From the IMG/VR virus record IMGVR_UViG_3300006040_000004, positions 1 through 40,692 of that record: 40,692 bases of DNA. The stretch is one strand, 5' to 3'. This document shows positions 2,964 through 17,398 of this stretch, piece by piece. Source of the DNA: a virus (taxonomy: Duplodnaviria; Caudoviricetes). The position numbers and the translations under genes were made by a program. Below the pieces are notes generated by a model that worked only from the letters and a program-made list of their open reading frames with translations, was not told the origin of the DNA and made no database searches. The stretch's first letter is position 1. Each line of letters begins with the position of its first letter.

Positions 2964-5281
2964 GCGGCGGAGTACGCCGCCATTGCCGCCGCGCCCGTTA
3001 GCGACCAGGAAAAGTGTCCCTCACGCACGTACAGCGTGGGGCGCTGGCCGTCGGGTTGCACGGGGTTATTGGTGCGCCCGTCTACCAGGCCGGGGTGTTT
3101 CACATACCCTAACCCCTCCAGGAGCGCACCGCGTTGGGCGCGTGGAACACTTCGTCCCGCTTGCATCTCCTTAAGCAGATGATCTAAAAAGTGTGATGAT
3201 GCCCACCCGTCCCGGAATCCTACACGCCCATTGTCCGCCGCGTGCAGTATCTCCTGTTCGATAGATGACCGGCTCAGTTGGATGGCCTCGCGCGTGCTGC
3301 TCGTCGTGGGTGCTTCGTGGCACGCCCCGGCGGGGTCGAACTCAGCGGCGATGGGGTACGAACGCAGGTAATCCGCCACCACCGAATACCCATACTTGGC
3401 GCCGTGCTTCGCGTACTTGTTGCGCCCCTCGAACCAGTCATACAGATCGGGGAAGTACGTCCCGCCCATGCCGTCCCGTATTTTATCAGCCTTAGACTGC
3501 TGTGCAGTGTATAGGATGCAGTAGCGGCGGTTATCGGTGTTGACGGGCACACCGTCCTTGTGGTTCGTACACATGAGGCCATTGGCGCGGTTGTCCCCCA
3601 TGACCTGATTCGCGCCCTTACCCTCGAACTGGATGCGGTCATTTGTGACCATCGCCTTGAACGCTTCCAGGAAGTCCCGACGGTGCGGGACATATATCTC
3701 CTCGATGCCTATAAATATTTTACGATCCAACCAGCTATTGAACTTTGCCCCGTTTTTCGCCATGTCGGCCACGTCCGGAAGGTGCGTATACCTGTGCCCG
3801 ACGGCATGGGACAGGCAGCGAATTACGGCGCTCTTACCGTTGCCCACGGTGCCCTGTAACACTGGCCAATACTGAAATTTACGCCCCGGATTTTGCACGA
3901 GTGAAGCGCAGTAACTCAGCAGGATTTCACGATCGCGGGGATCGGGTAGCATCTTCGTAATCAGGTTTACGAACGGCGCGGGGTCGCCGGAAACACTCAA
4001 TGTGTCCGTGGGAAGGTAGGTGTTAAACAGTATGCGCCCCTCTTCCTGCACCAGTGCGCCTGGTTCCAGTTCTGGACGGAAACACAACGAGTGCGCACGC
4101 GGGAACCGTAGCGCCTGGGACTGCGTAAAACACTCCCACGCCTTGCGGCTGCTGCGGGTGTTCGCGTCGTCCATCGTGTAATTAAATCCGCCGTACCGCA
4201 CGTTAAAGCGCGCTTCGTCCAATGTCGCGCCGTCGGGGGTGAAAATCAGATTACGATCTTCGACATACACGCAGCCTGCGAACACGGCGGCCTGCTGATC
4301 CACGTTTACGAACGTAGAACCCGACACAGGGGAGGGGGTGGCTGCGCCGGTAACGCGGATGCCTACCGATTCGGCGGGGGTGTCCTTACAGAAGGCTTTC
4401 TGCCCTGAACAGGCGAACAACACGGTACGGGTCAGGTAATCGTCCCGATCCCATTTTTCCCGCACCAGGCCAGAGGTGAGCATGATTCGGTGGATTCGTT
4501 CGCAGTCCCCACCCGTCCAGAACGCGAGGTGGCGCGCAAGGGCAGCGTCCGCCCCGCTGGCGTCGTAAGGGCGCTCGGGATCGGGAAACGCCGCACTGAG
4601 AGCGTCCACGTCTGCCGTCCAGAGTTGGTCGAACGAGGCGGTACGCCCGAACGCGCTGGAGGCGCTCTTACTGTTGCGCGCCCGGCGTATTAGGTCGGCG
4701 TCATCGGCGGGGCCGCGCCATTCGGGGTGAGGCGCGTCCGTCCAGGCAGGGAGCGCGCCTTCCGGTGCGTCAGGTACGGGGGCGAAATACTGTGTGACCA
4801 ACGCGGCCAGGGCGGCGGAACAGTCCAGCCCGGCGTCCCCGATGGCTTGATCGGTACGCCCGAACGCCACGAATCGGGAGGCGTGGTAAAACTCCAGGTG
4901 GTGCACGTCGTTCTTGCACTTGTGTGGGGGTATCGTCCCCGTGCCGATGATGTGCAGGCCACGCCCGGACTGCGAGACTTCCACGAACGCGCCAGCGAAC
5001 ATCGCGCACAGAGCCAGCGCGAGGGGCGACCACTTACCGTCCGGCTGGAGGCAGCTATCAATATCCAGGAGCCAGAACGGGTCGTTCTCGGTGAGGGCGA
5101 ACCCAACGAGAGGGCTATGTTCCCGCGCGTTTTCGTAGGTCGTCCAGATGCGTGGGTCTTGCGCGTCGGACACAGCTCCGGTGCCCCAGTCGGTGGGTTT
5201 TTTGTCCATCTTGCCCGCCGAACCAGCGCGGGGGACGAGCTTATAAGTGACGAATTGATGATATGGGAGGAGTGCATTCAT
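2930..5281 (-). CDS. Primase-polymerase / D5-like SF3 helicase fusion
   Basis: LDID and EVSQSGRGLH primase-polymerase motifs; Walker A QGTVGNGKS; TNH motif. Confidence 0.9.
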   Translation of the reverse strand: MNALLPYHQFVTYKLVPRAGSAGKMDKKPTDWGTGAVSDAQDPRIWTTYENAREHSPLVGFALTENDPFWLLDIDSCLQPDGKWSPLALALCAMFAGAFVEVSQSGRGLHIIGTGTIPPHKCKNDVHHLEFYHASRFVAFGRTDQAIGDAGLDCSAALAALVTQYFAPVPDAPEGALPAWTDAPHPEWRGPADDADLIRRARNSKSASSAFGRTASFDQLWTADVDALSAAFPDPERPYDASGADAALARHLAFWTGGDCERIHRIMLTSGLVREKWDRDDYLTRTVLFACSGQKAFCKDTPAESVGIRVTGAATPSPVSGSTFVNVDQQAAVFAGCVYVEDRNLIFTPDGATLDEARFNVRYGGFNYTMDDANTRSSRKAWECFTQSQALRFPRAHSLCFRPELEPGALVQEEGRILFNTYLPTDTLSVSGDPAPFVNLITKMLPDPRDREILLSYCASLVQNPGRKFQYWPVLQGTVGNGKSAVIRCLSHAVGHRYTHLPDVADMAKNGAKFNSWLDRKIFIGIEEIYVPHRRDFLEAFKAMVTNDRIQFEGKGANQVMGDNRANGLMCTNHKDGVPVNTDNRRYCILYTAQQSKADKIRDGMGGTYFPDLYDWFEGRNKYAKHGAKYGYSVVADYLRSYPIAAEFDPAGACHEAPTTSSTREAIQLSRSSIEQEILHAADNGRVGFRDGWASSHFLDHLLKEMQAGRSVPRAQRGALLEGLGYVKHPGLVDGRTNNPVQPDGQRPTLYVREGHFSWSLTGAAAMAAYSAAQGVFTLAAVK

Positions 5282-6228
5282 GTTAGATAGCTCCCGATGA
5301 ACGCTTTGGCCGCTTCGGCATTGATAGCATTGCCGTAACCGCGCAGTCGTCCCACACGGGCGGCAGCCCCATGAGCCAGCGGGAATGTGCCGGGTTCAAC
5401 TGGCCGCCATTTTCCATCGCGGCATCCGAGCCAGTCAGCATCTCGCCAGAAACCGTTAGTCGGGCGGCTTGGGGGTGACATACGAGGTGTTGTGCCCATA
5501 TGGCAAGGCACGTTCCGCTGTTCGGTCGGTCGTACTGGCGCGCGGAGTACGCTTGGGGGTCGCCCGTCCGGCTGTGATTCACGTTGTGGCAGTCGGGCGT
5601 CGGCCAACCTGTTAGCGTCACATGCTCCCGTAGGTTCGAGCAACCGCCTTTCAACTTGTTCCGGGCCAACGCTTCCCCCGTTTTTGGTGGCAACGTGTCC
5701 ATACAGTTCGGTGTCGGCCATCCTGTCCGCAACAAACCAGAGTCGTTGTCGGATGTGCGGCGCGCCGACGCCCGCAGCGCAGAGATCGACCGCCCCTGTG
5801 GCGTAGCCCGCTCCTTCCAGGTCAGCTTGTACAAGGTCGAGCCAACCGAGGCCGTCAGGGCTTGCAACTTGCTCACCAAAGATCGTGTCAGGCTGGCACT
5901 GTGTGATGAGGTGGAAGAATGCAGGCCAGAGGTGCCGCTCGTCAGACATCCCAGCGCCTTTGCCTGCCGCGCTGAAAGGTTGGCAGGGGCAAGAGCCAGT
6001 CCAAACTGGGCGATCGTCAGGCCACCCAGCTTGTCGCAGGGCATAGTCCCATCCTGCGACCCCCGCGAACCAGTGACACCTGAGGAACCCGGCAGCGTCG
6101 CTTGGTAAAACATCTTCGATTGATCGTTCATCTACTTCCCCTCGCATAATGTGACCCGCTTTCATCAACTCTCGAATCCAAGCAGCCGCGAAGGGGTCGC
6201 GCTCATTGTAATAAGCCCACTTTTTCAT
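5278..6228 (-). CDS. DNA (cytosine-5) methyltransferase, main subunit
   Basis: FAGVAG (motif I), GSCPCQPFS (IV), EQV (VI), HIRQRLW (VIII), GYGNAI (X). Confidence 0.9.
   Translation of the reverse strand: MKKWAYYNERDPFAAAWIRELMKAGHIMRGEVDERSIEDVLPSDAAGFLRCHWFAGVAGWDYALRQAGWPDDRPVWTGSCPCQPFSAAGKGAGMSDERHLWPAFFHLITQCQPDTIFGEQVASPDGLGWLDLVQADLEGAGYATGAVDLCAAGVGAPHIRQRLWFVADRMADTELYGHVATKNGGSVGPEQVERRLLEPTGACDANRLADARLPQRESQPDGRPPSVLRAPVRPTEQRNVPCHMGTTPRMSPPSRPTNGFWRDADWLGCRDGKWRPVEPGTFPLAHGAAARVGRLRGYGNAINAEAAKAFIGSYLT
5283..6131 (-). CDS. Overlapping alternate-frame ORF, candidate methyltransferase beta subunit (true start uncertain)
   Basis: 282 open codons nested in the MTase; two GWPTP repeats; motif IX-like LNPAHSRWLMGLP. 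Confidence 0.6.
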   Translation of the reverse strand: MNDQSKMFYQATLPGSSGVTGSRGSQDGTMPCDKLGGLTIAQFGLALAPANLSARQAKALGCLTSGTSGLHSSTSSHSASLTRSLVSKLQALTASVGSTLYKLTWKERATPQGRSISALRASARRTSDNDSGLLRTGWPTPNCMDTLPPKTGEALARNKLKGGCSNLREHVTLTGWPTPDCHNVNHSRTGDPQAYSARQYDRPNSGTCLAIWAQHLVCHPQAARLTVSGEMLTGSDAAMENGGQLNPAHSRWLMGLPPVWDDCAVTAMLSMPKRPKRSSGAI

Positions 6229-6531: not shown

Positions 6532-6912
6532 TTAAATCCCCCCAGTACTGAAAATGGCGTAACCACCCATCGAGTTTACCATGTCGGCCCATCGCCGCTG
6601 TCCTTGTTCGTGTTCATCCCCCGCCGACGGTTTCCACCCAGGCCGCTTAACCTCGATGCTCACGAACTGCCCGATTGTCGTCCCTACCATCGCTTGCGTG
6701 ATAAGTACGGGGCGTATGCCGATCAGATCGGCGCTACGGACGTGCGTACCTACGGCGGGGGAGTCGTTACACAACCCCCAGCGGATGAAATTCCCGTTCT
6801 CTAGTTTCCCCGCGCCCCGATTGTTCCTCCACACGCGCCACCCGGCGGCACTCGCCGCCAGGCGCACATCGGTAGTCACTGACGTTTCACTTAATCCCGT
6901 TTTAGTGTTCAT
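6532..6912 (-). CDS. VRR-NUC domain nuclease
   Basis: SET..., SADLIG, IEVKRP, EQGQRRW PD-(D/E)XK motifs. Confidence 0.85.
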   Translation of the reverse strand: MNTKTGLSETSVTTDVRLAASAAGWRVWRNNRGAGKLENGNFIRWGLCNDSPAVGTHVRSADLIGIRPVLITQAMVGTTIGQFVSIEVKRPGWKPSAGDEHEQGQRRWADMVNSMGGYAIFSTGGI

Positions 6913-6938: not shown

Positions 6939-6985
6939 CCGTGTTACGCACCATTTTTGGTGCCTAATACATGTTAGGCACCAAA
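6939..6985 (+). other. attI/dif-like recombination site 1: TTTGGTGCCTAA-TACATG-TTAGGCACCAAA with upstream GTTACGC box
   Basis: 12-bp perfect arms with 6-bp spacer; contains GTTAGGC core (6973-6979); GTTACGC at 6943-6949; caps cassette array 1. Confidence 0.6.
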
Positions 6986-7167
6986 CTAAATCCTGTGCGT
7001 CGTTCTTTCCCGTCTGTGTGAATTGCCTTCAGTAAGTACCTGCGCACCTTCCCGATGCCATCAACCGCGCATACGCCATTTGGTAGAATCTCAATAATTT
7101 CGAGCACCCTGTTCTTTCCCATGCGCGGGTCATTGTCTTTAATCTTGTCGCCAATTTTCAGCTCCAT
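6964..7167 (-). CDS. Cassette hypothetical protein (small, SH3/KOW-like beta protein)
   Basis: GAGGTGA RBS; LKIGDKIKDND; stop lies inside the palindromic site. Confidence 0.7.
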   Translation of the reverse strand: MELKIGDKIKDNDPRMGKNRVLEIIEILPNGVCAVDGIGKVRRYLLKAIHTDGKERRTGFSLVPNMY

Positions 7168-7191
7168 ATCTCACCTCTCTATAGTTAAAAC

Positions 7192-7254
7192 CCCTAACCC
7201 GGCGGTGAAGAGGGATCGCCCAAAAGCGGGCGACCCCTTACCTCTACGTTAGGG
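7192..7254 (+). other. attC site
   Basis: CCCTAAC...GTTAGGG with inner GTGAAGAGGGATCGCCC / GGGCGACCCCTTAC pairing. Confidence 0.85.
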
Positions 7255-7454
7255 CGCAGTTTCTTAGCTTCATCTGCTGCCCATAAAAACCATTGGCTAG
7301 GTGTCATAGCGTAGTATCCATTTGGACCTGTGTCAGAAAGTAATTCACCCAGACATTTGGCTGCAATCTCCCATGTTATTGGGTCACGCCCTAACCCGGC
7401 GGTGAAGAGGGACTGCCCGTCTGCGGGGCTTTTTACGTTCACTGGTTTATTCAT
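7194..7454 (-). CDS. Cassette hypothetical protein, overlapping two attC sites
   Basis: AAGGAG RBS and ATG 7454 lie inside the loop of the 7389-7511 attC; stop inside the 7192-7254 attC. Confidence 0.6.
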   Translation of the reverse strand: MNKPVNVKSPADGQSLFTAGLGRDPITWEIAAKCLGELLSDTGPNGYYAMTPSQWFLWAADEAKKLRPNVEVRGRPLLGDPSSPPG

Positions 7455-7511
7455 GCCCACTCCTTTTTTGTTAGTTCACTAATCGGGCAGCCCCTTACCT
7501 TGACGTTAGGC
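7389..7511 (+). other. attC site with long variable terminal loop
   Basis: CCCTAACCCGGCGGTGAAGAGGGACTGCCC ... GGGCAGCCCCTTACCTTGACGTTAGGC. Confidence 0.8.
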
Positions 7512-7709
7512 ACCACCCGGTGTGGTTTCGTCGATCTCTTTTATTATTGCTTCCATTTGTTCAACAATTTCACGGAATTCAATGATTGAATCAGATGCTT
7601 TTACTCTCACGTCTCCGAAATGTAAAAATATTCCACGCTCGACTATATCACCGTCTGAATCATAGTCATTTACTGAAAAATTAATGTTTTTTGGGTGCGC
7701 CATGTTCAT
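7506..7709 (-). CDS. Cassette hypothetical protein (acidic, 67 aa)
   Basis: Fills the space between two attC sites; stop TAA coincides with the GTTAGGC core. Confidence 0.75.
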   Translation of the reverse strand: MNMAHPKNINFSVNDYDSDGDIVERGIFLHFGDVRVKASDSIIEFREIVEQMEAIIKEIDETTPGGA

Positions 7710-7727
7710 ACCCTCTTTTAAGTTTCA

Positions 7728-7783
7728 GTCTAACGAGTCGTTGGAGCGCGACGGCTTCGCCGCGCCTCAACTATGCGTTAGGC
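7728..7783 (+). other. attC site
   Basis: GTCTAACGAGTCGTTGGAGCGCGACGGCTTCGCCGCGCCTCAACTATGCGTTAGGC. Confidence 0.9.
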
Positions 7784-8038
7784 ACCATTCTCCATGACGT
7801 ATTTTTTAGCATCATCCTTTGATACATCTACGCCATCCCAATCCAAATAAATAGTGTCGGCATTGCATTCGTCGATCATCTGGCAAATTAACTCTTTTTG
7901 CTCTGGCGTGTCGCGCTGCGTCATCGCTCCGGCGGACGCCCCAAGGGCAAAGTAACTTTTGAGAAGATCCCTGCCTTTTTCACTATTGAGATTCCATGCT
8001 TTCAGAGTTCCCCACTTTAGGGTAATATGGTCTTTCAT
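7778..8038 (-). CDS. Cassette hypothetical protein (LKWGTLKAW motif)
   Basis: GAGG RBS; stop coincides with the attC core. Confidence 0.8.
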   Translation of the reverse strand: MKDHITLKWGTLKAWNLNSEKGRDLLKSYFALGASAGAMTQRDTPEQKELICQMIDECNADTIYLDWDGVDVSKDDAKKYVMENGA

Positions 8039-8054
8039 TTCACTACCTCATTAT

Positions 8055-8111
8055 GCCTAACTTTTCGTCCAAGCGGACTGCTCCGCCGCCGCTTAACTCA
8101 CGGCGTTAGGC
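8055..8111 (+). other. attC site
   Basis: GCCTAACTTTTCGTCCAAGCGGACTGCTCCGCCGCCGCTTAACTCACGGCGTTAGGC; same layout as the aadA-type 59-base element top strand. Confidence 0.92.
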
Positions 8112-8117
8112 GTCAAT

Positions 8118-8468
8118 CTACCCATTTTCATTTCGGCATGGTGACGGGTTTTCATCAAACCGTACCGCCTTGATAGTTTTCTCTCCGGTCAGTATCGCCT
8201 TCATAATCCTGTGCCTTCCGTCCATTAATTCACCGTCTTCGTCAAGGATTATCGGCTTTGTTAAGTCGGCTTCATTAACCGCCCGCATATGCATGACCAT
8301 TTCCCGAAGTGTTAACTCTTTATAAGTATAAAAAACGTTCAAGTGGTCAATCGGAATCTCCATTACGGGCATCTCTCGCGCCAGCTCAAATAGTCTTGGA
8401 ACACTCCAAGAAAGCCGACCGAGCATACACATCTGATCTTTTGGGGCGAGCCATTTATCAATCTTCAT
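8118..8468 (-). CDS. Cassette ParB/Srx-like domain protein
   Basis: PIILDEDGELMDGRHRIMKA motif. Confidence 0.8.
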   Translation of the reverse strand: MKIDKWLAPKDQMCMLGRLSWSVPRLFELAREMPVMEIPIDHLNVFYTYKELTLREMVMHMRAVNEADLTKPIILDEDGELMDGRHRIMKAILTGEKTIKAVRFDENPSPCRNENG

Positions 8469-8481
8469 TCCAATACCCTAT

Positions 8482-8559
8482 GTCTAACACTACGTTTAAG
8501 GTTCGTTCGCTCCGCTCACCGGACTGGCTACGCCAGCCGCCTTAACTCAGGCGTTAGCC
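8482..8559 (+). other. attC site
   Basis: GTCTAACACTACGTTTAAGG ... CCTTAACTCAGGCGTTAGCC. Confidence 0.88.
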
Positions 8560-8590
8560 GCCACCAGCATCACCAGTGGCGGCAGGTCAG

Positions 8591-8815
8591 TTAGAAGAAA
8601 GTCGGTTGCGCCACGGCGCGGGTGAGCGCCATCAGGCCGGTCTGAAAATCAGTAGCGCCGATGCTGACCCACCGCTGATCAAGCCCTTCAGTTGAGCGGA
8701 GCTTTGCCACAAGCTCACCCAGCTCGGCTCCTTTAGTCTTGATCTCGTTCATTGCCGCAATCTCGGCTTCGTTCAGTTCGCGATAGCCCTTGATCTGTCT
8801 ATGTTGGTTTTCCAT
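8591..8815 (-). CDS. acb2: Anti-CBASS cyclic-oligonucleotide sponge, Acb2 family
   Basis: MENQHRQIKGYRELNEAEIAAMNEIK...RWVSIGATDFQTGLMALTRAVAQP matches the Acb2 family pattern (NQH..IKGYR.L..EI..MN..K; RW..IG.TD.QTG.MA..RA.AQP), recalled from knowledge. Confidence 0.9.
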   Translation of the reverse strand: MENQHRQIKGYRELNEAEIAAMNEIKTKGAELGELVAKLRSTEGLDQRWVSIGATDFQTGLMALTRAVAQPTFF

Positions 8816-8855
8816 TGCGCATCCTCTGTATTGTACCGCTGCATTATCGGGCGCA

Positions 8856-8890
8856 GCGGCGAAGCCGTCGCGTTGAACGCCGGGTTAGCC
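8856..8890 (-). other. Half attC site in inverted orientation
   Basis: Minus strand reads GGCTAACCCGGCGTTCAACGCGACGGCTTCGCCGC; the partner half is missing. Confidence 0.6.
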
Positions 8891-8899
8891 GCGCTTTAA

Positions 8900-9073
8900 C
8901 TATGTGATATACGCCAAATCATTGCGTGGTATTTTTTCCAAAAAGTCTTCACATTCCCGCATCGTTTCAAATCTGTTTCCGTCGATGTTTATTGACCCAT
9001 CTGAGTTTTGAGTGAGGTCAACGCCCCTGTTTTTGCATGGCTGACGCAAATTAAAGATAAAAATAGAATTCAT
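8900..9073 (-). CDS. Cassette hypothetical protein (57 aa)
   Basis: AAGGAG RBS before ATG 9073. Confidence 0.65.
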   Translation of the reverse strand: MNSIFIFNLRQPCKNRGVDLTQNSDGSINIDGNRFETMRECEDFLEKIPRNDLAYIT

Positions 9074-9089
9074 TGGTATTCTCCTTGCC

Positions 9090-9179
9090 GTATAACCCAA
9101 CATTCAAGCGGGACGCGCTTGAAGCGCCTGATGTTGTCTGGTCGGTCATTTATGCGCGCCCCTTAATTCTGCGTTATAC
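9090..9179 (+). other. attC site
   Basis: GTATAACCCAACATTCAAGCGGGACGCGC ... GCGCGCCCCTTAATTCTGCGTTATAC. Confidence 0.85.
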
Positions 9180-9661
9180 GTCATCAACACTTCGTCCAAG
9201 AGTCTCGGCGCAAGGGCTGTATGCTCGACCGAAACGCAGATGTATCTTTTATCGTCAATCGCTTTACTGTGAAGGTGTCCGTGCAGATTAGCCACGTATC
9301 TAGTTTCAAGTTGAGACGGATGCACCGGGACGTGTGTCAAAATGCACCCACGCAATTCTGCCGCACCAAAAATCTTGCCGAAGTATTGCTGGTAAATTTC
9401 AAGCGGGTAAACATCATGGTTGCCAAGCACCAATCGCTTTATGCCGTTTAGTTGTCCAAGAATAGTATGGTTATCCCGTCCGCCCATGAACACATCGCCC
9501 AAGTGCCAAACCGTGTCTTTTGGCTTTACTGTGGCATTCCACCGCTCAACCAAAACACGATCATGCTCTTCAATCGTGGCGAACGGACGATCCACGGGCT
9601 CAAATTCGATCACTTTTTTGTGGCCGAAATGGGTGTCCGAGATTACAAAAACTCTGTTCAT
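9146..9661 (-). CDS. Cassette calcineurin-like metallophosphoesterase
   Basis: SDTHFGH, LGD, GNHD, THVP, HGHLH motifs; C-terminus encoded by attC. Confidence 0.9.
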   Translation of the reverse strand: MNRVFVISDTHFGHKKVIEFEPVDRPFATIEEHDRVLVERWNATVKPKDTVWHLGDVFMGGRDNHTILGQLNGIKRLVLGNHDVYPLEIYQQYFGKIFGAAELRGCILTHVPVHPSQLETRYVANLHGHLHSKAIDDKRYICVSVEHTALAPRLLDEVLMTYNAELRGAHK

Positions 9662-9678
9662 AAAACTCCAAAAATGAC

Positions 9679-9705
9679 GTATACCCCTTAACTCAGGCGT
9701 TAGCC
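9679..9705 (+). other. Internally deleted attC
   Basis: GTATA joined directly to CCCCTTAACTCAGGCGTTAGCC; the right half matches the 8482-8559 site. Confidence 0.65.
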
Positions 9706-9709
9706 CCCA

Positions 9710-9886
9710 TCATCGCAGCCTGTACTCATAATAAACTTCAGAGCAGTGCACCGTGCTCGTCACGTCTAGAGTGCATGGGCGAATGGATATGATCTTCGTC
9801 GCACGCAACATGTTGACGTAGTGAAAAAGTTCCTCCATTGTGCTCCAATACACTTTCGCATTTCTGTAGCTAATTATTTCTGTCAC
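9710..9886 (-). CDS. Cassette hypothetical protein (58 aa)
   Basis: Not in ORF track; AGGGGG RBS, GTG start, MTEIISYRNAKVYWSTMEELFHYVNMLR... Confidence 0.55.
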   Translation of the reverse strand: MTEIISYRNAKVYWSTMEELFHYVNMLRATKIISIRPCTLDVTSTVHCSEVYYEYRLR

Positions 9887-9902
9887 ATCATCCCCCTATA
9901 GC

Positions 9903-9957
9903 CTCTAACCCAACATTGGAGCCGACCGCTACGCGTCGGCTCAACTATGCGTTATTC
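9903..9957 (+). other. Terminal attC of array 1, overlapping the helicase stop
   Basis: CTCTAACCCAACATTGGAGCCGACCGCTACGCGTCGGCTCAACTATGCGTTATTC. Confidence 0.85.
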
Positions 9958-11527
9958 TCCCCTTTAAAATCTCAGCGTCCGCACGGCCCAACGCCTGCGC
10001 ACTCGCCACATCTATGCCAAATTCGATATAAAACCGCCGTTGCGCGGCGCGTAGGTCGTCACCTTGCGCCCCACCCCAGATCGCCATCGCGCCCCGTAAC
10101 GCCTCTTGCGCTTCGGTCTTCTCCCGGTGGCGCTTCCGTACCGCCCCAATCACTTCAGGCGCCGCGCCGTAGGGTATAACGAGGGGTTTATCTATCTCGC
10201 CCCGTAGCCGTGCCAACGCTTCAGGGGACAGTTCGGCCAGATCGCCGTCCACATGTTCCGGGAGAGTGCGTAGCGCAGGCGTCCAGGCGAACCCACAATA
10301 CGGGCACGCGCTGAGGACTTTGTGGTACACCCCTGTGCACTCCACGCAGATGCGGGTCGGCGTGATCTCTACAGTTGAACGACTGCGGCGTTCTTGACGA
10401 TCCAGCGTCCATACGCGGGGGGAGTCGGGCAGGCCGTGCCGGTGGACGTTCCCCACGTGGTCGATAATAATTCCGCGTGTTTTCCCGTCCATCTTTCGTA
10501 ACGCCCGCCCGACCTGCTGTAGATATAGCGCCAGGCTGCACGTAGGGCGCGCCAGACTCACCACTTCGATCGCGGGTAAGTCGAACCCTTCCCCGAACAG
10601 ATCGACGTTGACCAGTTGTAGCAGCTCTCTCGCCCGGAGACGGCGTAGGATTTCCGCTCGCAGCGGCGCGGGTGTTTTGGCGCTCACGACTTCGGCGGGC
10701 ACTCCTGCCGCACGAAAGGCACTCGCCATTTCCGTGGCGCTCTCCACGTCTACGGTGAAAGTTATCCCGAGTTTCCCCGCCGCGATCCGCAGGTAATGCC
10801 CCACTATGTCGCCTACAATTGTGCGAGATGCGTGGACGGCGGCGGCTACGGCGGGAGGGCTAAAATCGCCACCTGCGCTTAACGGAATGTGAGACGTGTC
10901 AACATCGGAGGGCGGGGCGAATATCCGGTAGGATGACAGCCACCCTTCCTGCATGAGTTCCCGCGTTGTCGGCCCTTCCACCATGATGTCCAGTACCCCG
11001 TCCGCGTGTCGCCCCAAACCACGACCGTCCGCACGACGCGGCGTGGCGGTCACACCGAGACCCCGTGCGTTCGGGAACATGGAGACGGCGTTCCCCCACT
11101 TGTTGCCGCGTTGGAGGTGGTGCGCTTCGTCACACACCCACAGCCGTACCTGGGCGAACCAGGGGAGTTTCGCGTTCATCCTCACCAGCGTGTCCACCCC
11201 CGCCACGGCGCACCGAGCCTGGGGGTCTACAAAGTTACGGCCGGCGTCCCGAAGGTGGGCACGTGTACACTCTCGTGCCAGGTCAGGCGAGCCGATAATC
11301 CGGTGCTTGACCTCGTTTTGCGCGAGCGCCATACTGATCTGCCCCACTAGTTCCTGCCGATGCGCGATCGCTACGGACGCGCCGCGTTCCTCTCGGATGA
11401 GGTCAGAGAAAACTACAGTTTTGCCCCCGCCCGTCGGGATCACGAGCAGCACGTTCTGCGCGCCGTCACTCCACGCCGACAGAACGTCATGCTTCGCGTC
11501 TTGTTGGAAGGGGTACAGCGTTTTCAT
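9941..11527 (-). CDS. SF2 DEAH helicase with C-terminal zinc finger
   Basis: PTGGGKT, DEAHH, TATP, QQVGRALR, CVEC...CPYC. Confidence 0.93.
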   Translation of the reverse strand: MKTLYPFQQDAKHDVLSAWSDGAQNVLLVIPTGGGKTVVFSDLIREERGASVAIAHRQELVGQISMALAQNEVKHRIIGSPDLARECTRAHLRDAGRNFVDPQARCAVAGVDTLVRMNAKLPWFAQVRLWVCDEAHHLQRGNKWGNAVSMFPNARGLGVTATPRRADGRGLGRHADGVLDIMVEGPTTRELMQEGWLSSYRIFAPPSDVDTSHIPLSAGGDFSPPAVAAAVHASRTIVGDIVGHYLRIAAGKLGITFTVDVESATEMASAFRAAGVPAEVVSAKTPAPLRAEILRRLRARELLQLVNVDLFGEGFDLPAIEVVSLARPTCSLALYLQQVGRALRKMDGKTRGIIIDHVGNVHRHGLPDSPRVWTLDRQERRSRSTVEITPTRICVECTGVYHKVLSACPYCGFAWTPALRTLPEHVDGDLAELSPEALARLRGEIDKPLVIPYGAAPEVIGAVRKRHREKTEAQEALRGAMAIWGGAQGDDLRAAQRRFYIEFGIDVASAQALGRADAEILKGRITHS

Positions 11528-11539
11528 ATTTCTACCGCT

Positions 11540-11634
11540 ATTGACTTGTTCGTCAATATCCCACAGACTGCAAGCTCTGTCAAACGAATTATTTTTAACG
11601 ATTCGTACCGAGGGCTATTGACAACTCCGTCAGT
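11540..11634. promoter_or_regulatory. Candidate operators ATTGAC-N6-GTCA(A/G)T
   Basis: ATTGACTTGTTCGTCAAT (11540-11557) and ATTGACAACTCCGTCAGT (11617-11634), each overlapping one promoter. Confidence 0.55.
11555..11583 (-). promoter_or_regulatory. Sigma70-type promoter for the leftward operon
   Basis: TTGACA-17 bp-GATATT on the minus strand. Confidence 0.6.
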
Positions 11635-11646
11635 AACGATTATGGT
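11618..11646 (+). promoter_or_regulatory. Sigma70-type promoter for the rightward operon
   Basis: TTGACA-17 bp-TATGGT. Confidence 0.7.
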
Positions 11647-13439: not shown

Positions 13440-14330
13440 ATGACACAAGTAATATTCCCCGTAGGCAGAATGGTCGGTGGCGACCTGTACACCCTGGAGC
13501 CGGTCGTAGACAAACACGGTGTTCAGAAAATCAACAAAGCCGGACAGCCGTCTTTTTCGTGTTCGGTCGGTGTGGCTATCAAAAAAGGTGCCGAGGCGCA
13601 CTGGGCGGAGACGGCCTGGGGTACGGAGATCCACAGCATTGGAAAGGCAGGATACCCTCAGGAACACGCGTCCCCTTTCTTTGCATGGAAAATCAAGGAC
13701 GGTGATTCCCTCGTGCCCAATAAGAAAGGGCGCGTAGCGAGGGATAACGAGAACTACCGAGGGCACTGGATCGTCTGGTTTAGCCAGAGCTGGTTGCCTG
13801 CTTTGTTCGCGCGGGTGGCTACGGGCAAACTGCGGGAATTGGGGTTGACTGAAAAAGTGCGACTTGGTGACTACCTCCAGGTACAAGGCGACATCAAGGA
13901 TAATCGCCCCAGTGAGTCACCGGGGGTGTACCTGAACCCGTCGGCAGTTCTGTTCGTCGGGGAAGGAGAACGTATCGCTTCTGAGGTGGACGTAAGCGCG
14001 CTTGAATCGGCACCCGCTGCCGCCCTGCCCCCTGGCGCCCGTCCCCTGACGCCTGCCGTGGCTGGATTCGGTGCGCCCGCTGCCGCCCTGCCCCCTGGCG
14101 CCCGTCCCCTGACGCCTGCCGTGGCTGGATTCGGTGCGCCCGCTGCCGTGGCTCCCCCTGTAGTCGTGCCGAACCCTGCGTTCCTCCAGGTGCCACCGCC
14201 CGCCCCACGCCCTCCCGCCGTACCTGCCGCACGGGTTATGACCCCCGCCGCGCAAGGTGCGACTTACGCTCAGATGATCGAAGCTGGGTGGACTGAGGAG
14301 TTGTTGGTACAGCACGGAATGGTGGCATAA
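13440..14330 (+). CDS. Single-stranded DNA-binding protein (DUF2815-like)
   Basis: Position between nuclease and polymerase; WKIKDGD, PGVYLN motifs. Confidence 0.75.
   Translation: MTQVIFPVGRMVGGDLYTLEPVVDKHGVQKINKAGQPSFSCSVGVAIKKGAEAHWAETAWGTEIHSIGKAGYPQEHASPFFAWKIKDGDSLVPNKKGRVARDNENYRGHWIVWFSQSWLPALFARVATGKLRELGLTEKVRLGDYLQVQGDIKDNRPSESPGVYLNPSAVLFVGEGERIASEVDVSALESAPAAALPPGARPLTPAVAGFGAPAAALPPGARPLTPAVAGFGAPAAVAPPVVVPNPAFLQVPPPAPRPPAVPAARVMTPAAQGATYAQMIEAGWTEELLVQHGMVA
14013..14148 (+). repeat. 63-bp perfect tandem duplication in the SSB tail
   Basis: PAAALPPGARPLTPAVAGFGA twice, plus a partial third copy. Confidence 0.9.
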
Positions 14331-14331
14331 C

Positions 14332-16524
14332 GTGACAAACCGAACCGCCTCCATCGACTTCGAGACGTACTCCGAGGCGGGGTACGTCTGGGCCGGGAAA
14401 TGGGGAGCGCTTCCTGGTGCGTCGCAGGGCAAGAAAGGACTCGGGGTGGTGGGAACCTCCGTTTACTCGGAACACCCCAGTACTGAAGTTCTCACCATGT
14501 CCTACGACATTGGAGACGGTTCGCGTAACTGGCAACCGGGGGCACTCCCTCCGGTCGCTCTTTTTGCACACATTCGAGGGGGTGGCATCGTTAAAGCGTG
14601 GAACACCCGCTTCGAATACCTAATTTGGAATAACGTGTGCGTGCCGAAGTACGGCTGGCCGCCGTTACCCTTGAGTCAATTAAGGGACACGATGGCGAAG
14701 TCTCGGGCGCACGCGTTACCCGGCAAGCTGGGCAAGGCCGCAGAAGTCCTCGGTCTTACCGAACAGAAAGACCCAGACGGCGACCGACTGATTAAAAAAT
14801 TCAGTATGCCGCGCAACCCGACAAAGAAAGACCCGCGCACGCGAATACGGCTCATGAGCGAACCCGTCGATGGCCCCCTCATGCTCGCGTACTGTGACCA
14901 GGACGTGCGGGCGGAAGCCGCAGCAGACGTGGCGATCCCCGACCTGTCCGCCGCTGAGACGGAGGTGTGGCTGCTCGACCAAGAGATCAACGAACGGGGC
15001 GTGATGCTCGACATGGACGGCGTGCAGAGCTGCATCGCCGTGATCGAACAGGCGCACGCTCAGTACAACGAGGAACTGCGCGCACTGACGGGCGGTACGG
15101 TGTCTCGTGCCAGCGAACTCCAGAAACTCATCGGCTGGCTGGGAGCGCAGGGCGTACACACTGAGAGTCTCGATGAGGAACATCTGTCCGAGTTGCTGCG
15201 GGCGCCTGAGTTGCTGCCCCCGCAAGCCCGACGCGCCCTTGAGATACGGGAGGCCATCGGTAGCGCCGCCGTGAAGAAGGTATTCGCCATGCGGAACGCG
15301 GTGTCGAAGGACGGACACCTTCGCGATCTCTACCTGTACCACGGCGCGCGCACTGGGCGGGTAACGGGCGCGGGCGCACAGCCGACCAACATGCCCAACA
15401 GTGCGGGGGTCTACGCCACACGGTGCGAGGCGTGCGAACGCCACTACGGGGCGGGGATCAAGGACTGCCCGTGGTGCGGCTGCTCCGGCGACCTGTCCCA
15501 CCAGGTAGAATGGGGTGTGCCCGCCGCGCAGGACGCACTGGAGGTGATCGGCACACAGAACCTTAACGCAGTGGAGCATTTCTACGGCGACGCCATGCAG
15601 GCCGTCTCCGGCTGTCTACGCAGTCTGTTCGTCGCCGCGCCCGGCCACGACCTGATCTGTTCGGACTACTCCAGCATCGAGGCGGTCGTACTCGCCATGC
15701 TGTCCGGGGAACCGTGGCGCATCGACGTGTTCAGGACGCACGGGAAGATTTACGAAATGTCCGCCGCGAAGATCGCAGGCGTTTCGTTCGAGGCCATGCT
15801 TGAACACAAGAAAACAACCGGGCAACACCACCCCCTCCGCAAGCTGGGCAAGGTGGCAGAACTCGCCAGCGGCTACCAGGGGTGGATCGGGTCGTGGGTG
15901 CAGTTCGGTGCGGACGAGTTCTTGCCCGAGGAAGAAATAAAAACGGCGATCCTCGCTTGGCGTGCGGCGAGTCCGGCGATCGTGGAGCTATGGGGCGGGC
16001 AGGAGCGTAACTGGCAACCGGAGCTGTTCGGCGTGGAGGGCGCGTTCATCACCGCCATGCAGTACCCCGGTCGCGTCTTCTTCGTGCGGGGCCTGCGGTT
16101 TCGGATGTGGGGAGACGCGGTATATATCCGACTGCCCTCGGGACGGGAGCTGACGTACCATCGGCCACGTCTAGGGCCGAGTGACCGACGACCTGGCACG
16201 TACGCCATCAGTTTCGAGGGGTGGAACAGTAATCCCAAGAACGGCCCCGTCGGCTGGATAGTCCTGCGGACGTGGGGTGGTCGTCTGGTGGAGAACGTCG
16301 TACAGGCCATCGCACGGGATATTCAGTGGCACGGCCTCCTGGCGTTACGTGCGGCAGGGTATCCTACGGTTCTCCACGTCTACGACGAGAACGTGTGCGA
16401 GGTACCGGAGGGGTTTGGCAGTATCGAAGAGCTCGAGGCGATCATGGGCCGGATGCCCGAGTGGGCGGCGGATTGGCCGATTCGGGCACAGGGTGGATGG
16501 CGCGGTAAGAGGTATCGTAAATGA
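14332..16524 (+). CDS. Family A DNA polymerase with 3'-5' exonuclease
   Basis: IDFET, TGR, SDYSSIEA, RKLGKVAELASGYQG, HVYDE. Confidence 0.93.
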   Translation: MTNRTASIDFETYSEAGYVWAGKWGALPGASQGKKGLGVVGTSVYSEHPSTEVLTMSYDIGDGSRNWQPGALPPVALFAHIRGGGIVKAWNTRFEYLIWNNVCVPKYGWPPLPLSQLRDTMAKSRAHALPGKLGKAAEVLGLTEQKDPDGDRLIKKFSMPRNPTKKDPRTRIRLMSEPVDGPLMLAYCDQDVRAEAAADVAIPDLSAAETEVWLLDQEINERGVMLDMDGVQSCIAVIEQAHAQYNEELRALTGGTVSRASELQKLIGWLGAQGVHTESLDEEHLSELLRAPELLPPQARRALEIREAIGSAAVKKVFAMRNAVSKDGHLRDLYLYHGARTGRVTGAGAQPTNMPNSAGVYATRCEACERHYGAGIKDCPWCGCSGDLSHQVEWGVPAAQDALEVIGTQNLNAVEHFYGDAMQAVSGCLRSLFVAAPGHDLICSDYSSIEAVVLAMLSGEPWRIDVFRTHGKIYEMSAAKIAGVSFEAMLEHKKTTGQHHPLRKLGKVAELASGYQGWIGSWVQFGADEFLPEEEIKTAILAWRAASPAIVELWGGQERNWQPELFGVEGAFITAMQYPGRVFFVRGLRFRMWGDAVYIRLPSGRELTYHRPRLGPSDRRPGTYAISFEGWNSNPKNGPVGWIVLRTWGGRLVENVVQAIARDIQWHGLLALRAAGYPTVLHVYDENVCEVPEGFGSIEELEAIMGRMPEWAADWPIRAQGGWRGKRYRK

Positions 16525-16733
16525 TTAAAAACACAATGGTTCAAATAACGGCGTTATTCCCCGGTAAACACAAGATGTTCCTCGCGGGGTACTTTCACGG
16601 TTCCAACGGGTTCGCCGCGCACCAACTGAACGTCATACGGTCGCCGAGACGCCGCGAGGAACGTGAGGAATACCAGAAGGGGCATTCGGCGGGACGCCGC
16701 GAGGAACGTGAGGCGTACTACGCCGTGTTATAA
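16521..16733 (+). CDS. Hypothetical protein containing a 21-bp internal direct repeat
   Basis: ATGA overlap; GACGCCGCGAGGAACGTGAGG at 16648 and 16693. Confidence 0.6.
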   Translation: MIKNTMVQITALFPGKHKMFLAGYFHGSNGFAAHQLNVIRSPRRREEREEYQKGHSAGRREEREAYYAVL

Positions 16734-16748
16734 GACTTGGAGATAGAT

Positions 16749-17156
16749 ATGAATGCAGTTGTGATTGACGGGGTGCGGTACGTCACCGATCCGATGCACG
16801 CGGACGAGGTGAAGTTTTACTACATGCACGATAACCACACCTTTTCCAGATTGACCGGAGCCACCATTGATGAGGTGCTGGCTTCCGCTGACGCGATGGC
16901 AAAGGAAAGCCGTTGCGGGATGCTTTGCCCGCCGATGCTCTTGGCTGGAGGAAAAGAGGTGCGCCGCCTGAAAGCCGGTGCGCACGCGCCATGCTGCGGC
17001 AGCGACGACAGCAAATGGCTGACCGGGGTAGCAGAGTGGCGGACGGAATGCGAAGCGGACAGCGACGTGCGGCGGCTGGTGTCTTCTAACGCAGAATTGA
17101 GCCGCGACGTAGTCGTCGGCTCGGATATTGGGTTATGCAACGAGGGTAATGAATGA
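16749..17156 (+). CDS. Cassette-like hypothetical protein
   Basis: GGAG RBS; C-terminus SNAELSR... is read through an attC. Confidence 0.75.
   Translation: MNAVVIDGVRYVTDPMHADEVKFYYMHDNHTFSRLTGATIDEVLASADAMAKESRCGMLCPPMLLAGGKEVRRLKAGAHAPCCGSDDSKWLTGVAEWRTECEADSDVRRLVSSNAELSRDVVVGSDIGLCNEGNE
17084..17138 (-). other. attC site (top strand on minus)
   Basis: Minus strand GCATAACCCAATATCCGAGCCGACGACTACGTCGCGGCTCAATTCTGCGTTAGAA. Confidence 0.85.
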
Positions 17157-17365
17157 ATAAGATTCTGGCTTTCCCGGCGAGTACAACACTCACGGTTGGG
17201 CAGGCGCTCGATAGCGCAAACGGGATGCGCGAGCTGCTTACGGACGTGCTGATAGCCGGGTACGACGCTGACGGGGATTTGTATGTTCGATCCTCACGGA
17301 TGGATCGTAAGGACGCTTTGTGGCTGGCAGAGCAGTTGAAAAAGTACGCACTTGATGGTGCCTAA
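17153..17365 (+). CDS. Cassette hypothetical protein (70 aa)
   Basis: GAGG RBS; ends GGTGCCTAA like cassettes 7506-7709 and 7778-8038. Confidence 0.75.
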   Translation: MNKILAFPASTTLTVGQALDSANGMRELLTDVLIAGYDADGDLYVRSSRMDRKDALWLAEQLKKYALDGA

Positions 17366-17398
17366 TACATGTTAGGCACCACTTGGGGTGTAACACGG
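17356..17398. other. attI/dif-like recombination site 2
   Basis: TGGTGCCTAATACATGTTAGGCACCA identical to 6958-6983; outer GTAACACGG mirrors CCGTGTTAC of site 1. Confidence 0.6.

Follow-up and report, generated by a model that had tools for sequence, protein, structure and literature searches.

An integron-type cassette array with antisense genes and an attI-like head site in a tailed phage genome without an integrase

Seventeen attC clusters without an integron integrase (CALINs) have been reported in phages, and five of the six phage attC sites tested recombine with attI1 via IntI1 (PMC9892861). In integrons, the gene of a cassette is set in the direction of the cassette promoter Pc by recombination of the attC bottom strand (10.1101/2022.09.11.507474), and chromosomal integrons are described as stores of anti-phage cassettes (10.1101/2024.07.02.601686; 10.1101/2024.07.02.601719). 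Here we analyzed the virus record IMGVR_UViG_3300006040_000004 of IMG/VR, which comprises 40,692 bases, has a completeness rating of 100% and is referred to in full as the window. As described for the phage CALINs of TJE1, PH101, P12002L and MW202573 (PMC9892861), attC sites are clustered in it between short genes and intI is absent. The window array carries an attI-like head site and nine genes antisense to its attC sites, and it was likely built and reshuffled by a host IntI acting in trans, as judged from sequence.

The original prediction for this locus regarded cassette arrays as normally bacterial. Integrase-less attC clusters in lytic phages that recombine with IntI1 have already been published (PMC9892861). 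The prediction was silent on the antisense genes, the attI-like head site and the Acb2 cassette, and the cargo is phage-type, not bacterial.

Array anatomy, head sites and gene orientation

The seven predicted hairpins of 55-123 bp are all present with the full layout of boxes and spacers, at 7192..7254, 7389..7511 (123 bp, with a translation start within its long loop), 7728..7783, 8055..8111, 8482..8559, 9090..9179 and 9903..9957, the attC top strand being the + strand throughout. In each, R''(NNYTAAC) is followed after 5 nt by an 8-nt L'', in which one base is unpaired, and a 7-nt L', a second spacer of 5-7 nt leads to R'(GTTANNN), and the L boxes pair at 6-7 of 7 positions once the fourth base is removed. 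Boxes and spacers of this kind with AAC and GTT cores were found at seven of the nine array sites and at an eighth complete site, 17084-17138. The bottom strand has the lower folding energy at all eight complete sites (7/7 in the array), and the fold with paired R boxes is the energy minimum at six of them and within 0.8 kcal/mol of it at the other two. Our attC caller, which was designed after these sites were known and also calls both attC sites of a fetched class 1 integron, returned seven sites in 6956-9957 and at most one in each of 300 Markov-simulated sequences, in agreement with the attC architecture first proposed. The array attC sites are up to about 90% identical to those of bacterial integron arrays, and some share 15-24 bp of identity with one another. 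A scan of the window against Rfam gave no matches. With at least two nearby attC sites and no integron integrase, the array is a real CALIN and not a complete integron.

The two remaining sites, which the original prediction had called partial, are indeed damaged and can be described more precisely. The composite site 8856..8912 joins the left half of an attC in reverse polarity (about 8856-8890) to a right half of the normal kind (8894-8912), in which the core is G-A-T, while 9679..9705 (+) is an attC remnant with an apparent internal deletion, its right 20 bp being identical to the right 20 bp of attC 8482. Top-strand attC recombination inserts a whole cassette backwards (PMC4792948) and might be the origin of the reversed fragment 8856-8890. 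At the last attC (9903..9957), R' extends over the last codons of the helicase gene and is poorly paired to its own R'', as expected of the original target, and this R' is likely the right half of the original insertion site. A separate 271-base contig of one metagenome run (X3) carries an attC 90% similar to window positions 9904-9954 with other sequence after the GTTA core, another element with the same attC type in the same sample. A sequence model (R1) was built from eight window sequences, including a candidate attC at 1159-1214 that was later rejected: it lies inside the + strand ORF (open reading frame) 1028-1417, fails the caller, and its R1 score is circular. An initial DNA pattern had six matches besides the twin of the window, in none of which the caller found an attC array.

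The palindrome at the head of the main array (6960-6984) is an attI-like site, placed at 6942..6979 (+) and composed of an upstream box (6942-6953), an L-like box (6962-6968) and a 4-nt spacer, with the crossover predicted at G6973/T6974. Among bacterial loci in which both intI and an array were detected, four have the same geometry, CTA[A/C/T]T-N4-GTT, upstream of intI. In its upstream box the head site agrees at 11 of 12 bases with attI1 of a fetched plasmid, the offset being -31 compared with -33, and no other 11/12 match exists in the window; in attI1 this box is what we take to be DR1. Among 82 viral array heads the attI-like motif occurs at 13 on the top strand (two of the 13 being the same phage) and at one on the bottom strand, and for 10 of these 13 heads the R box and the next R'' are exactly complementary. 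By its geometry and upstream box, 6942..6979 thus appears to be an attI-like platform and a candidate attI, which lends substance to the phage-borne cassette platform of the original prediction.

A second attI-like site at 17357..17398 (-) has the same 25-bp core (17357-17381) and a similar upstream box, with the central 6 bp flipped and ATT as R box. Recombination of attI with attI can cut both boxes (PMC4792948) and might be the source of the flipped core. The accompanying attC (17084..17138, top strand -) is read through by ORF 16749-17156 (+), which is followed by ORF 17153-17365 (+), and is likewise inverted relative to the genes. This mini-array region (16521-17398), located after the polymerase gene, contains one complete attC and, near 16720-16740, what may be an attC remnant. 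Two inverted arrays, both with a related attI-like site at the head, were also observed on a single contig of another phage (L129 and L143).

Regarding orientation, the - strand of the window sites corresponds in form to the bottom strand of aadA7 as given in the PMC9892861 supplement, and the unpaired base in L'' gives the same top-strand call. All nine array genes are therefore antisense to attC polarity. The arrangement expected of Pc was not found, as 9/9 genes lie on the bottom strand, the promoter candidate is at the opposite end, and no promoter was called on the + strand upstream of the head site. The pattern extends to other viruses: excluding the window cassettes, 87 of 153 viral segments were antisense, 21 sense and 45 unclear, compared with 16, 242 and 39 of 297 bacterial control segments examined with the same caller. 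By locus, 46 of 61 viral loci (some of which share a contig) were mostly antisense and seven mostly sense, while 75 of 86 bacterial loci were mostly sense. The bacterial set was collected with the same pattern as the third viral scan and comprised 170 stretches from 4 of 64 parts of the bacterial genomes. In 74 randomly chosen viral segments, PHROG matches were obtained for 16/73 antisense ORFs versus 1/72 sense ORFs. The matches with a name comprised six DNA methyltransferases, two Mom-like enzymes and one HNH nuclease, and the provirus record from which the only sense match comes also contains an intI.

Six other array-bearing phages have at most two detectable genes in common with the window. 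In three of the six (G001-G003) polarity flips between divergent arms, as it does in the window at 17084-17138. Array polarity follows the direction of transcription on both arms, an observation with which bidirectional replication from the divergent region would be confounded. Top-strand attC recombination was rejected as an explanation of the inversion, as it flips gene and attC together, and a tie to a single replication direction is disfavored by the agreement of polarity with transcription on both arms. An otherwise normal Lysobacter chromosomal array contains a single antisense ORF (L250 2783-3031), which has a ribosome-binding site and no PHROG or Pfam match and could be a phage-type cassette captured by the host.

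Nine ORFs lie between the sites, as the original prediction had approximately counted, each with a ribosome-binding-like sequence and all on the attC bottom strand (-). Eight of the nine cassette bodies have a GC content of 37-48%, compared with 56.9% for the genome, and are thus AT-richer as proposed, while the body of the Acb2 cassette has 57%. Cassette 1 (6964..7167, 67 aa), in the presumed newest position, has no PHROG, Pfam or PADLOC match and its stop codon lies within the L-like box of the head site. Cassette 2 (7194..7454, 86 aa), also without a family match, has its ribosome-binding site and ATG in the loop of attC 7389, and its C-terminus reads through attC 7192. The stop codon of cassette 3 (7506..7709, 67 aa) is inside R' of attC 7389, and four other homologues exist at 58-82%. 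Cassette 4 (7778..8038, 86 aa) belongs to a conserved family of no assigned function with 395 homologues; its closest viral relative (83%, L506) is likewise in an inverted attC array, and its best ESM Atlas score of 0.88 is a lead only. Short N-terminal extensions seen by eye in four of its homologues (P0004, P0010, P0013, P0014) resemble read-through of an attC bottom strand.

Cassette 5 (8118..8468, 116 aa) encodes a ParB-like phage protein (phrog_17560, E 2e-14), with a 69% DNA match to a gene annotated as parB-like in MW202423. The product of cassette 6 (8591..8815, 74 aa) falls in the Acb2/Tad1 family (PF24729, 65 bits with a cut-off of 27; PDB 8H2J and 8IXZ, E about 1e-15) and is predicted to be a nucleotide sponge of the Acb2 family acting against CBASS, an anti-phage system whose signaling is based on cyclic oligonucleotides. 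Its N- and C-terminal halves align closely with Acb2 of both structures, but it is about 19 residues shorter mid-protein and is carried as an inverted cassette. Cassette 7 (8900..9073, 57 aa) has no PHROG match, cassette 8 (9146..9661, 171 aa) encodes a phage metallophosphoesterase (phrog_547, E 6e-51; PF00149) whose last 11 codons run into attC 9090, and cassette 9 (9710..9886, 58 aa), in the presumed oldest position, is again an ORF with a ribosome-binding-like sequence. Overall, R' contains two of the stop codons, the reading frames of three genes extend into a site, and the start of cassette 2 is in an attC loop. PADLOC matched none of the 12 proteins submitted.

Cassette movement and the probable source of the integrase

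In an array built by IntI, pairing is expected between R'' and the R' that opens the same cassette. For 113 viral segments no longer than 700 bp, not counting six loci whose arrays are sense-oriented, the perfect complement of R'' was the own-cassette R' in 80 and the same-site R' in 19 (78 wins, 12 losses, p 5e-13). The corresponding values for bacteria were 223 and 93 of 273. In addition, one 340-bp cassette was found in five otherwise unrelated viral neighborhoods at 85-99.7% identity, with homology stopping at the TAA/C crossover. Two loci (L373 and L375) have a 99% identical Acb2 cassette in common and different neighbors on either side, its protein being 91% identical to that of the window. 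Furthermore, loci L125 and L143, which are 99.3-99.9% identical elsewhere, diverge 3 bp past the R box of the head site and are unlike in their first cassettes. Serial acquisition, as originally proposed, is thus upheld in other phages by the boundary test and the shared cassettes, while it is not provable within the window array alone.

At the locus itself, R1 had no match at E up to 1 in any of 79 other helicase loci (helicase identity 51-67%), and in seven of these the helicase and endonuclease genes lie within about 12 bp of each other, compared with about 3,030 bp in the window. Taken together, these loci indicate that the array is an insertion between two core genes. No close relative with other cassette content was found among 80 helicase loci in viral contigs or in the best 25 of 47 VRR-NUC loci in metagenome contigs. 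Two contigs (L001 and L457) are 100% identical to the window over 14.5 and 10.4 kb, across the array, and in two of the four metagenome runs searched a single contig spans the array without differences; these contigs and the matching runs, which are labelled sediment metagenome, may derive from the same samples as the window. A chimeric assembly, raised earlier as a way in which the prediction could fail, was thus not detected as far as testable. Contigs of the four runs, which can show presence only, included no joint or skipped cassette.

A tyrosine recombinase (PF00589) was not found in six frames of the complete window record, a positive control being matched in 14/14 genomes, and no integrase was detected among 52 window ORFs scanned against PHROG, as the original prediction had it. 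The ten genomes G001-G010 also gave no tyrosine recombinase. Of 48 viral records, one had IntI above the curated cut-off; this record is a provirus whose cassettes are normally oriented. A tyrosine recombinase was absent from 43 of 49 other viral records, many of which are fragments, and from 9 of the 11 near-complete ones. A host IntI acting in trans would be the simplest source of recombinase.

Such a combination appears in Rhodanobacter caeni JCM 16242, whose prophage (L515 3390-4342; G059 contig 4; L204) carries a head site and three inverted cassettes beside its own integrase gene, and a different contig of the host holds intI together with a normal array. The prophage head site shares a 12-base core stretch with the host attI, and one of the cassettes encodes a protein of the crAss001_48 family. 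Genes for integrase, repressor, terminase, portal and capsid are present, and PHROG matches for the last three confirm the prophage, Terminase_6N having no match in G059.

Proposed mechanism and competing explanations

The model rests on observations of attC anatomy, strand polarity, the resemblance of the head site to attI, the lack of a recombinase gene, the insertion between core genes and the precise sharing of cassettes among other phages. During infection, host IntI would recombine a circular cassette, through its folded bottom strand, with the phage attI-like site at G6973/T6974, and cassettes would stack with the newest beside the VRR-NUC gene and the oldest beside the helicase gene. 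The platform would oppose the phage operon, with its predicted promoter upstream of the helicase gene, and expression would be limited to cassettes whose genes lie on the attC bottom strand. Unrelated phages following the same convention could then share one pool of inverted cassettes (Acb2, DNA methyltransferases, Mom-like enzymes), and the convention would be self-reinforcing across phages. Host cassettes in the phage site would be antisense to phage transcription, and phage cassettes in the host attI antisense to Pc. If replication runs with transcription, the inversion would also place the bottom strand on the lagging template, which favors recombination (PMC5371416). A bolder version is a mirror-image integron, in which unrelated phages keep host-like attI sites, hijack host IntI and trade phage-only counter-defense cassettes, inverted polarity being a firewall that keeps the cassettes of each side silent in the other. 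We put this forward tentatively, as a possibility that we would not yet favor.

A number of observations weigh against construction by host IntI at a phage platform. Recombination, cassette circles and transcription are all deduced from sequence. The window alone contributes five cases to the boundary test, with one win and one loss, too few to inform. Its array is identical in every assembly found and the closest relative found has 67% helicase identity, so that turnover at the locus is unseen. Between L125 and L143, identity returns somewhat before the second attC and the swap is not perfectly clean. The caller found an adjacent inverted attC at only 3 of 79 Acb2 relatives, and the Acb2 family is therefore not confined to cassettes. 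No cassette is common to the 297 bacterial segments and the viral loci, and traffic via a host array is thus unseen. The window phage has no host assignment, its helicase being best matched, among cultured phages, by Shewanella and enterobacterial phages (54%) and its capsid by cyanopodoviruses (28%). Two of nine array sites are damaged and the second head site has ATT, not GTT, so parts may be inactive. Finally, some tyrosine recombinase occurs in 6 of 49 other viral records, the attI-like motif is absent from 69 of 82 viral array heads, and a cassette shared by L102 and L114 adjoins non-attC sequence, showing that secondary-site insertion also occurs.

The motif-less heads are what one would expect if host IntI inserted at secondary attG sites and subsequently at attC, the head palindrome being a collapsed attC or a chance target and no platform being maintained. 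Insertion at attG requires GWT alone and has no strand bias (10.1101/2022.09.11.507474), and the head site does resemble R'' fused to R', with a second copy whose core is flipped. However, the 4-nt spacing of the head fits the sites beside bacterial intI and not the 5-7-nt spacer of attC, 11 of the 12 bases of the upstream box agree with attI1 and their offset is comparable, the motif has a strand bias of 13 to 1, and near-identical phages differ exactly at the head site. We thus consider this explanation unlikely. Involvement of another recombinase, either host XerC/D on a dif-like core or a Xer-like enzyme of a co-infecting phage, seems rather improbable, given that the sites retain the extrahelical-base layout read by IntI and are close to bacterial integron attC sites (up to about 90% identity), that boundaries lie at the IntI crossover, and that most records, including 9 of 11 near-complete ones, are free of tyrosine recombinase genes. 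In its favor are the tyrosine recombinases found in six records and the head core, a palindrome with a 6-bp center, as in dif-type sites.

A one-time capture from a bacterial chromosomal integron, now inert, would be in line with the two decayed sites and the lack of variation in the window phage, and captures of this kind are described for Vibrio and Shewanella prophages (PMC9892861). Bacterial arrays, however, are mostly sense (242/297 segments), the identifiable cargo is phage-type and a second mini-array of opposite polarity is present in the same genome, which together make such an origin very improbable. It is harder still to believe that the hairpins are retained as RNA elements, either as terminators or as signals for processing or translation, while genes move by homologous recombination between similar hairpins. 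Several genes do start or end within sites, and some sites have 15-24 bp in common, but homology of shared cassettes stops at the IntI crossover base and not within the hairpin, core complementarity tracks cassette units, and no terminator-like site was called at any attC.

Genome setting and relation to known systems

PHROG matches for primase, methyltransferase, endonuclease, helicase, exonuclease, single-stranded DNA-binding protein (SSB), family A polymerase, capsid, portal and terminase identify the window as a tailed phage. The array is flanked downstream by the endonuclease gene (6532..6912, -; phrog_93 endonuclease, E 9e-14; VRR-NUC type according to the original prediction) and upstream by a superfamily 2 (SF2) helicase gene (9941..11527, -; phrog_16, PF04851, PF00271), both belonging to the core. 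A sigma-70-like promoter candidate at 11555..11583 (-), with a 10/12 consensus match and a predicted function, faces the helicase gene and the array, and a second, divergent candidate lies at 11618-11646 (+). Elsewhere in the window, two overlapping ORFs in different frames (5278-6228 and 5283-6131, -) both match DNA methyltransferase PHROGs, a pair that presumably resembles split C5 methyltransferases with an internal alternative-frame subunit. The SSB gene contains a near-perfect tandem repeat with a 63-bp period (14010-14148), at which contigs break in three runs, and a phrog_18326 gene (1599-2234, +) has a long low-complexity alanine-rich repeat. Ahead of several early genes (540-1600, +) the motif GGAGTAAATAA is found, a repeated translation or recombination signal.

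If phages trade counter-defense genes via a host enzyme and attI-like sites of their own, the integron would be a two-sided arms-race device and would generate phage mosaicism in a site-specific way. The mining of new anti-defense genes could then use inverted cassettes as a flag, most of the cargo being unannotated. Models of cassette origin must also allow for a gene on either attC strand, and in the window array some genes have their start or end within the hairpin. The R. caeni prophage, in a cultured strain combining host IntI with an inverted array, would provide a test system.

Among described phage CALINs, those listed in Table S1 of PMC9892861 have 2-4 sites, compared with nine in the window plus two attI-like sites, and the cassettes of TJE1 are normally oriented, whereas all window genes are antisense. 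In MW202573 (L354 2069-2703), which has three sites in its first 6 kb, our caller placed attC antisense to the annotated genes; the main text and the available part of the supplement of PMC9892861, figures and Dryad annotation apart, do not mention this inverted orientation. Among the papers listed by full-text searches that covered few subscription journals, none had a title or abstract opening on inverted phage cassettes or on intI-less phage attI platforms.

With the sedentary chromosomal integrons of Lysobacterales (Xanthomonadales) and of related Proteobacteria, the window array shares the attC consensus and the geometry of the head site, together with a boundary complementarity seen across other viral arrays and a presumed growth at the attI-like end. 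Unlike them, it lacks intI and Pc upstream of attI, its genes are on the bottom strand and predicted to be read from the far end, its attC sites are heterogeneous and its cargo is phage-type. Insertion at attG sites (Loot et al., 10.1101/2022.09.11.507474) also involves IntI acting in trans on integron-free DNA and may explain the motif-less heads. However, attG sites are described there as short GWT targets used in either orientation, while the window head combines an L-like box with an upstream box resembling that of attI1 and is found repeatedly at array heads. Phage attC clusters without an integrase were already known, and we believe that the inverted genes, the attI-like platform and the cross-phage traffic of phage-type cargo are new here.

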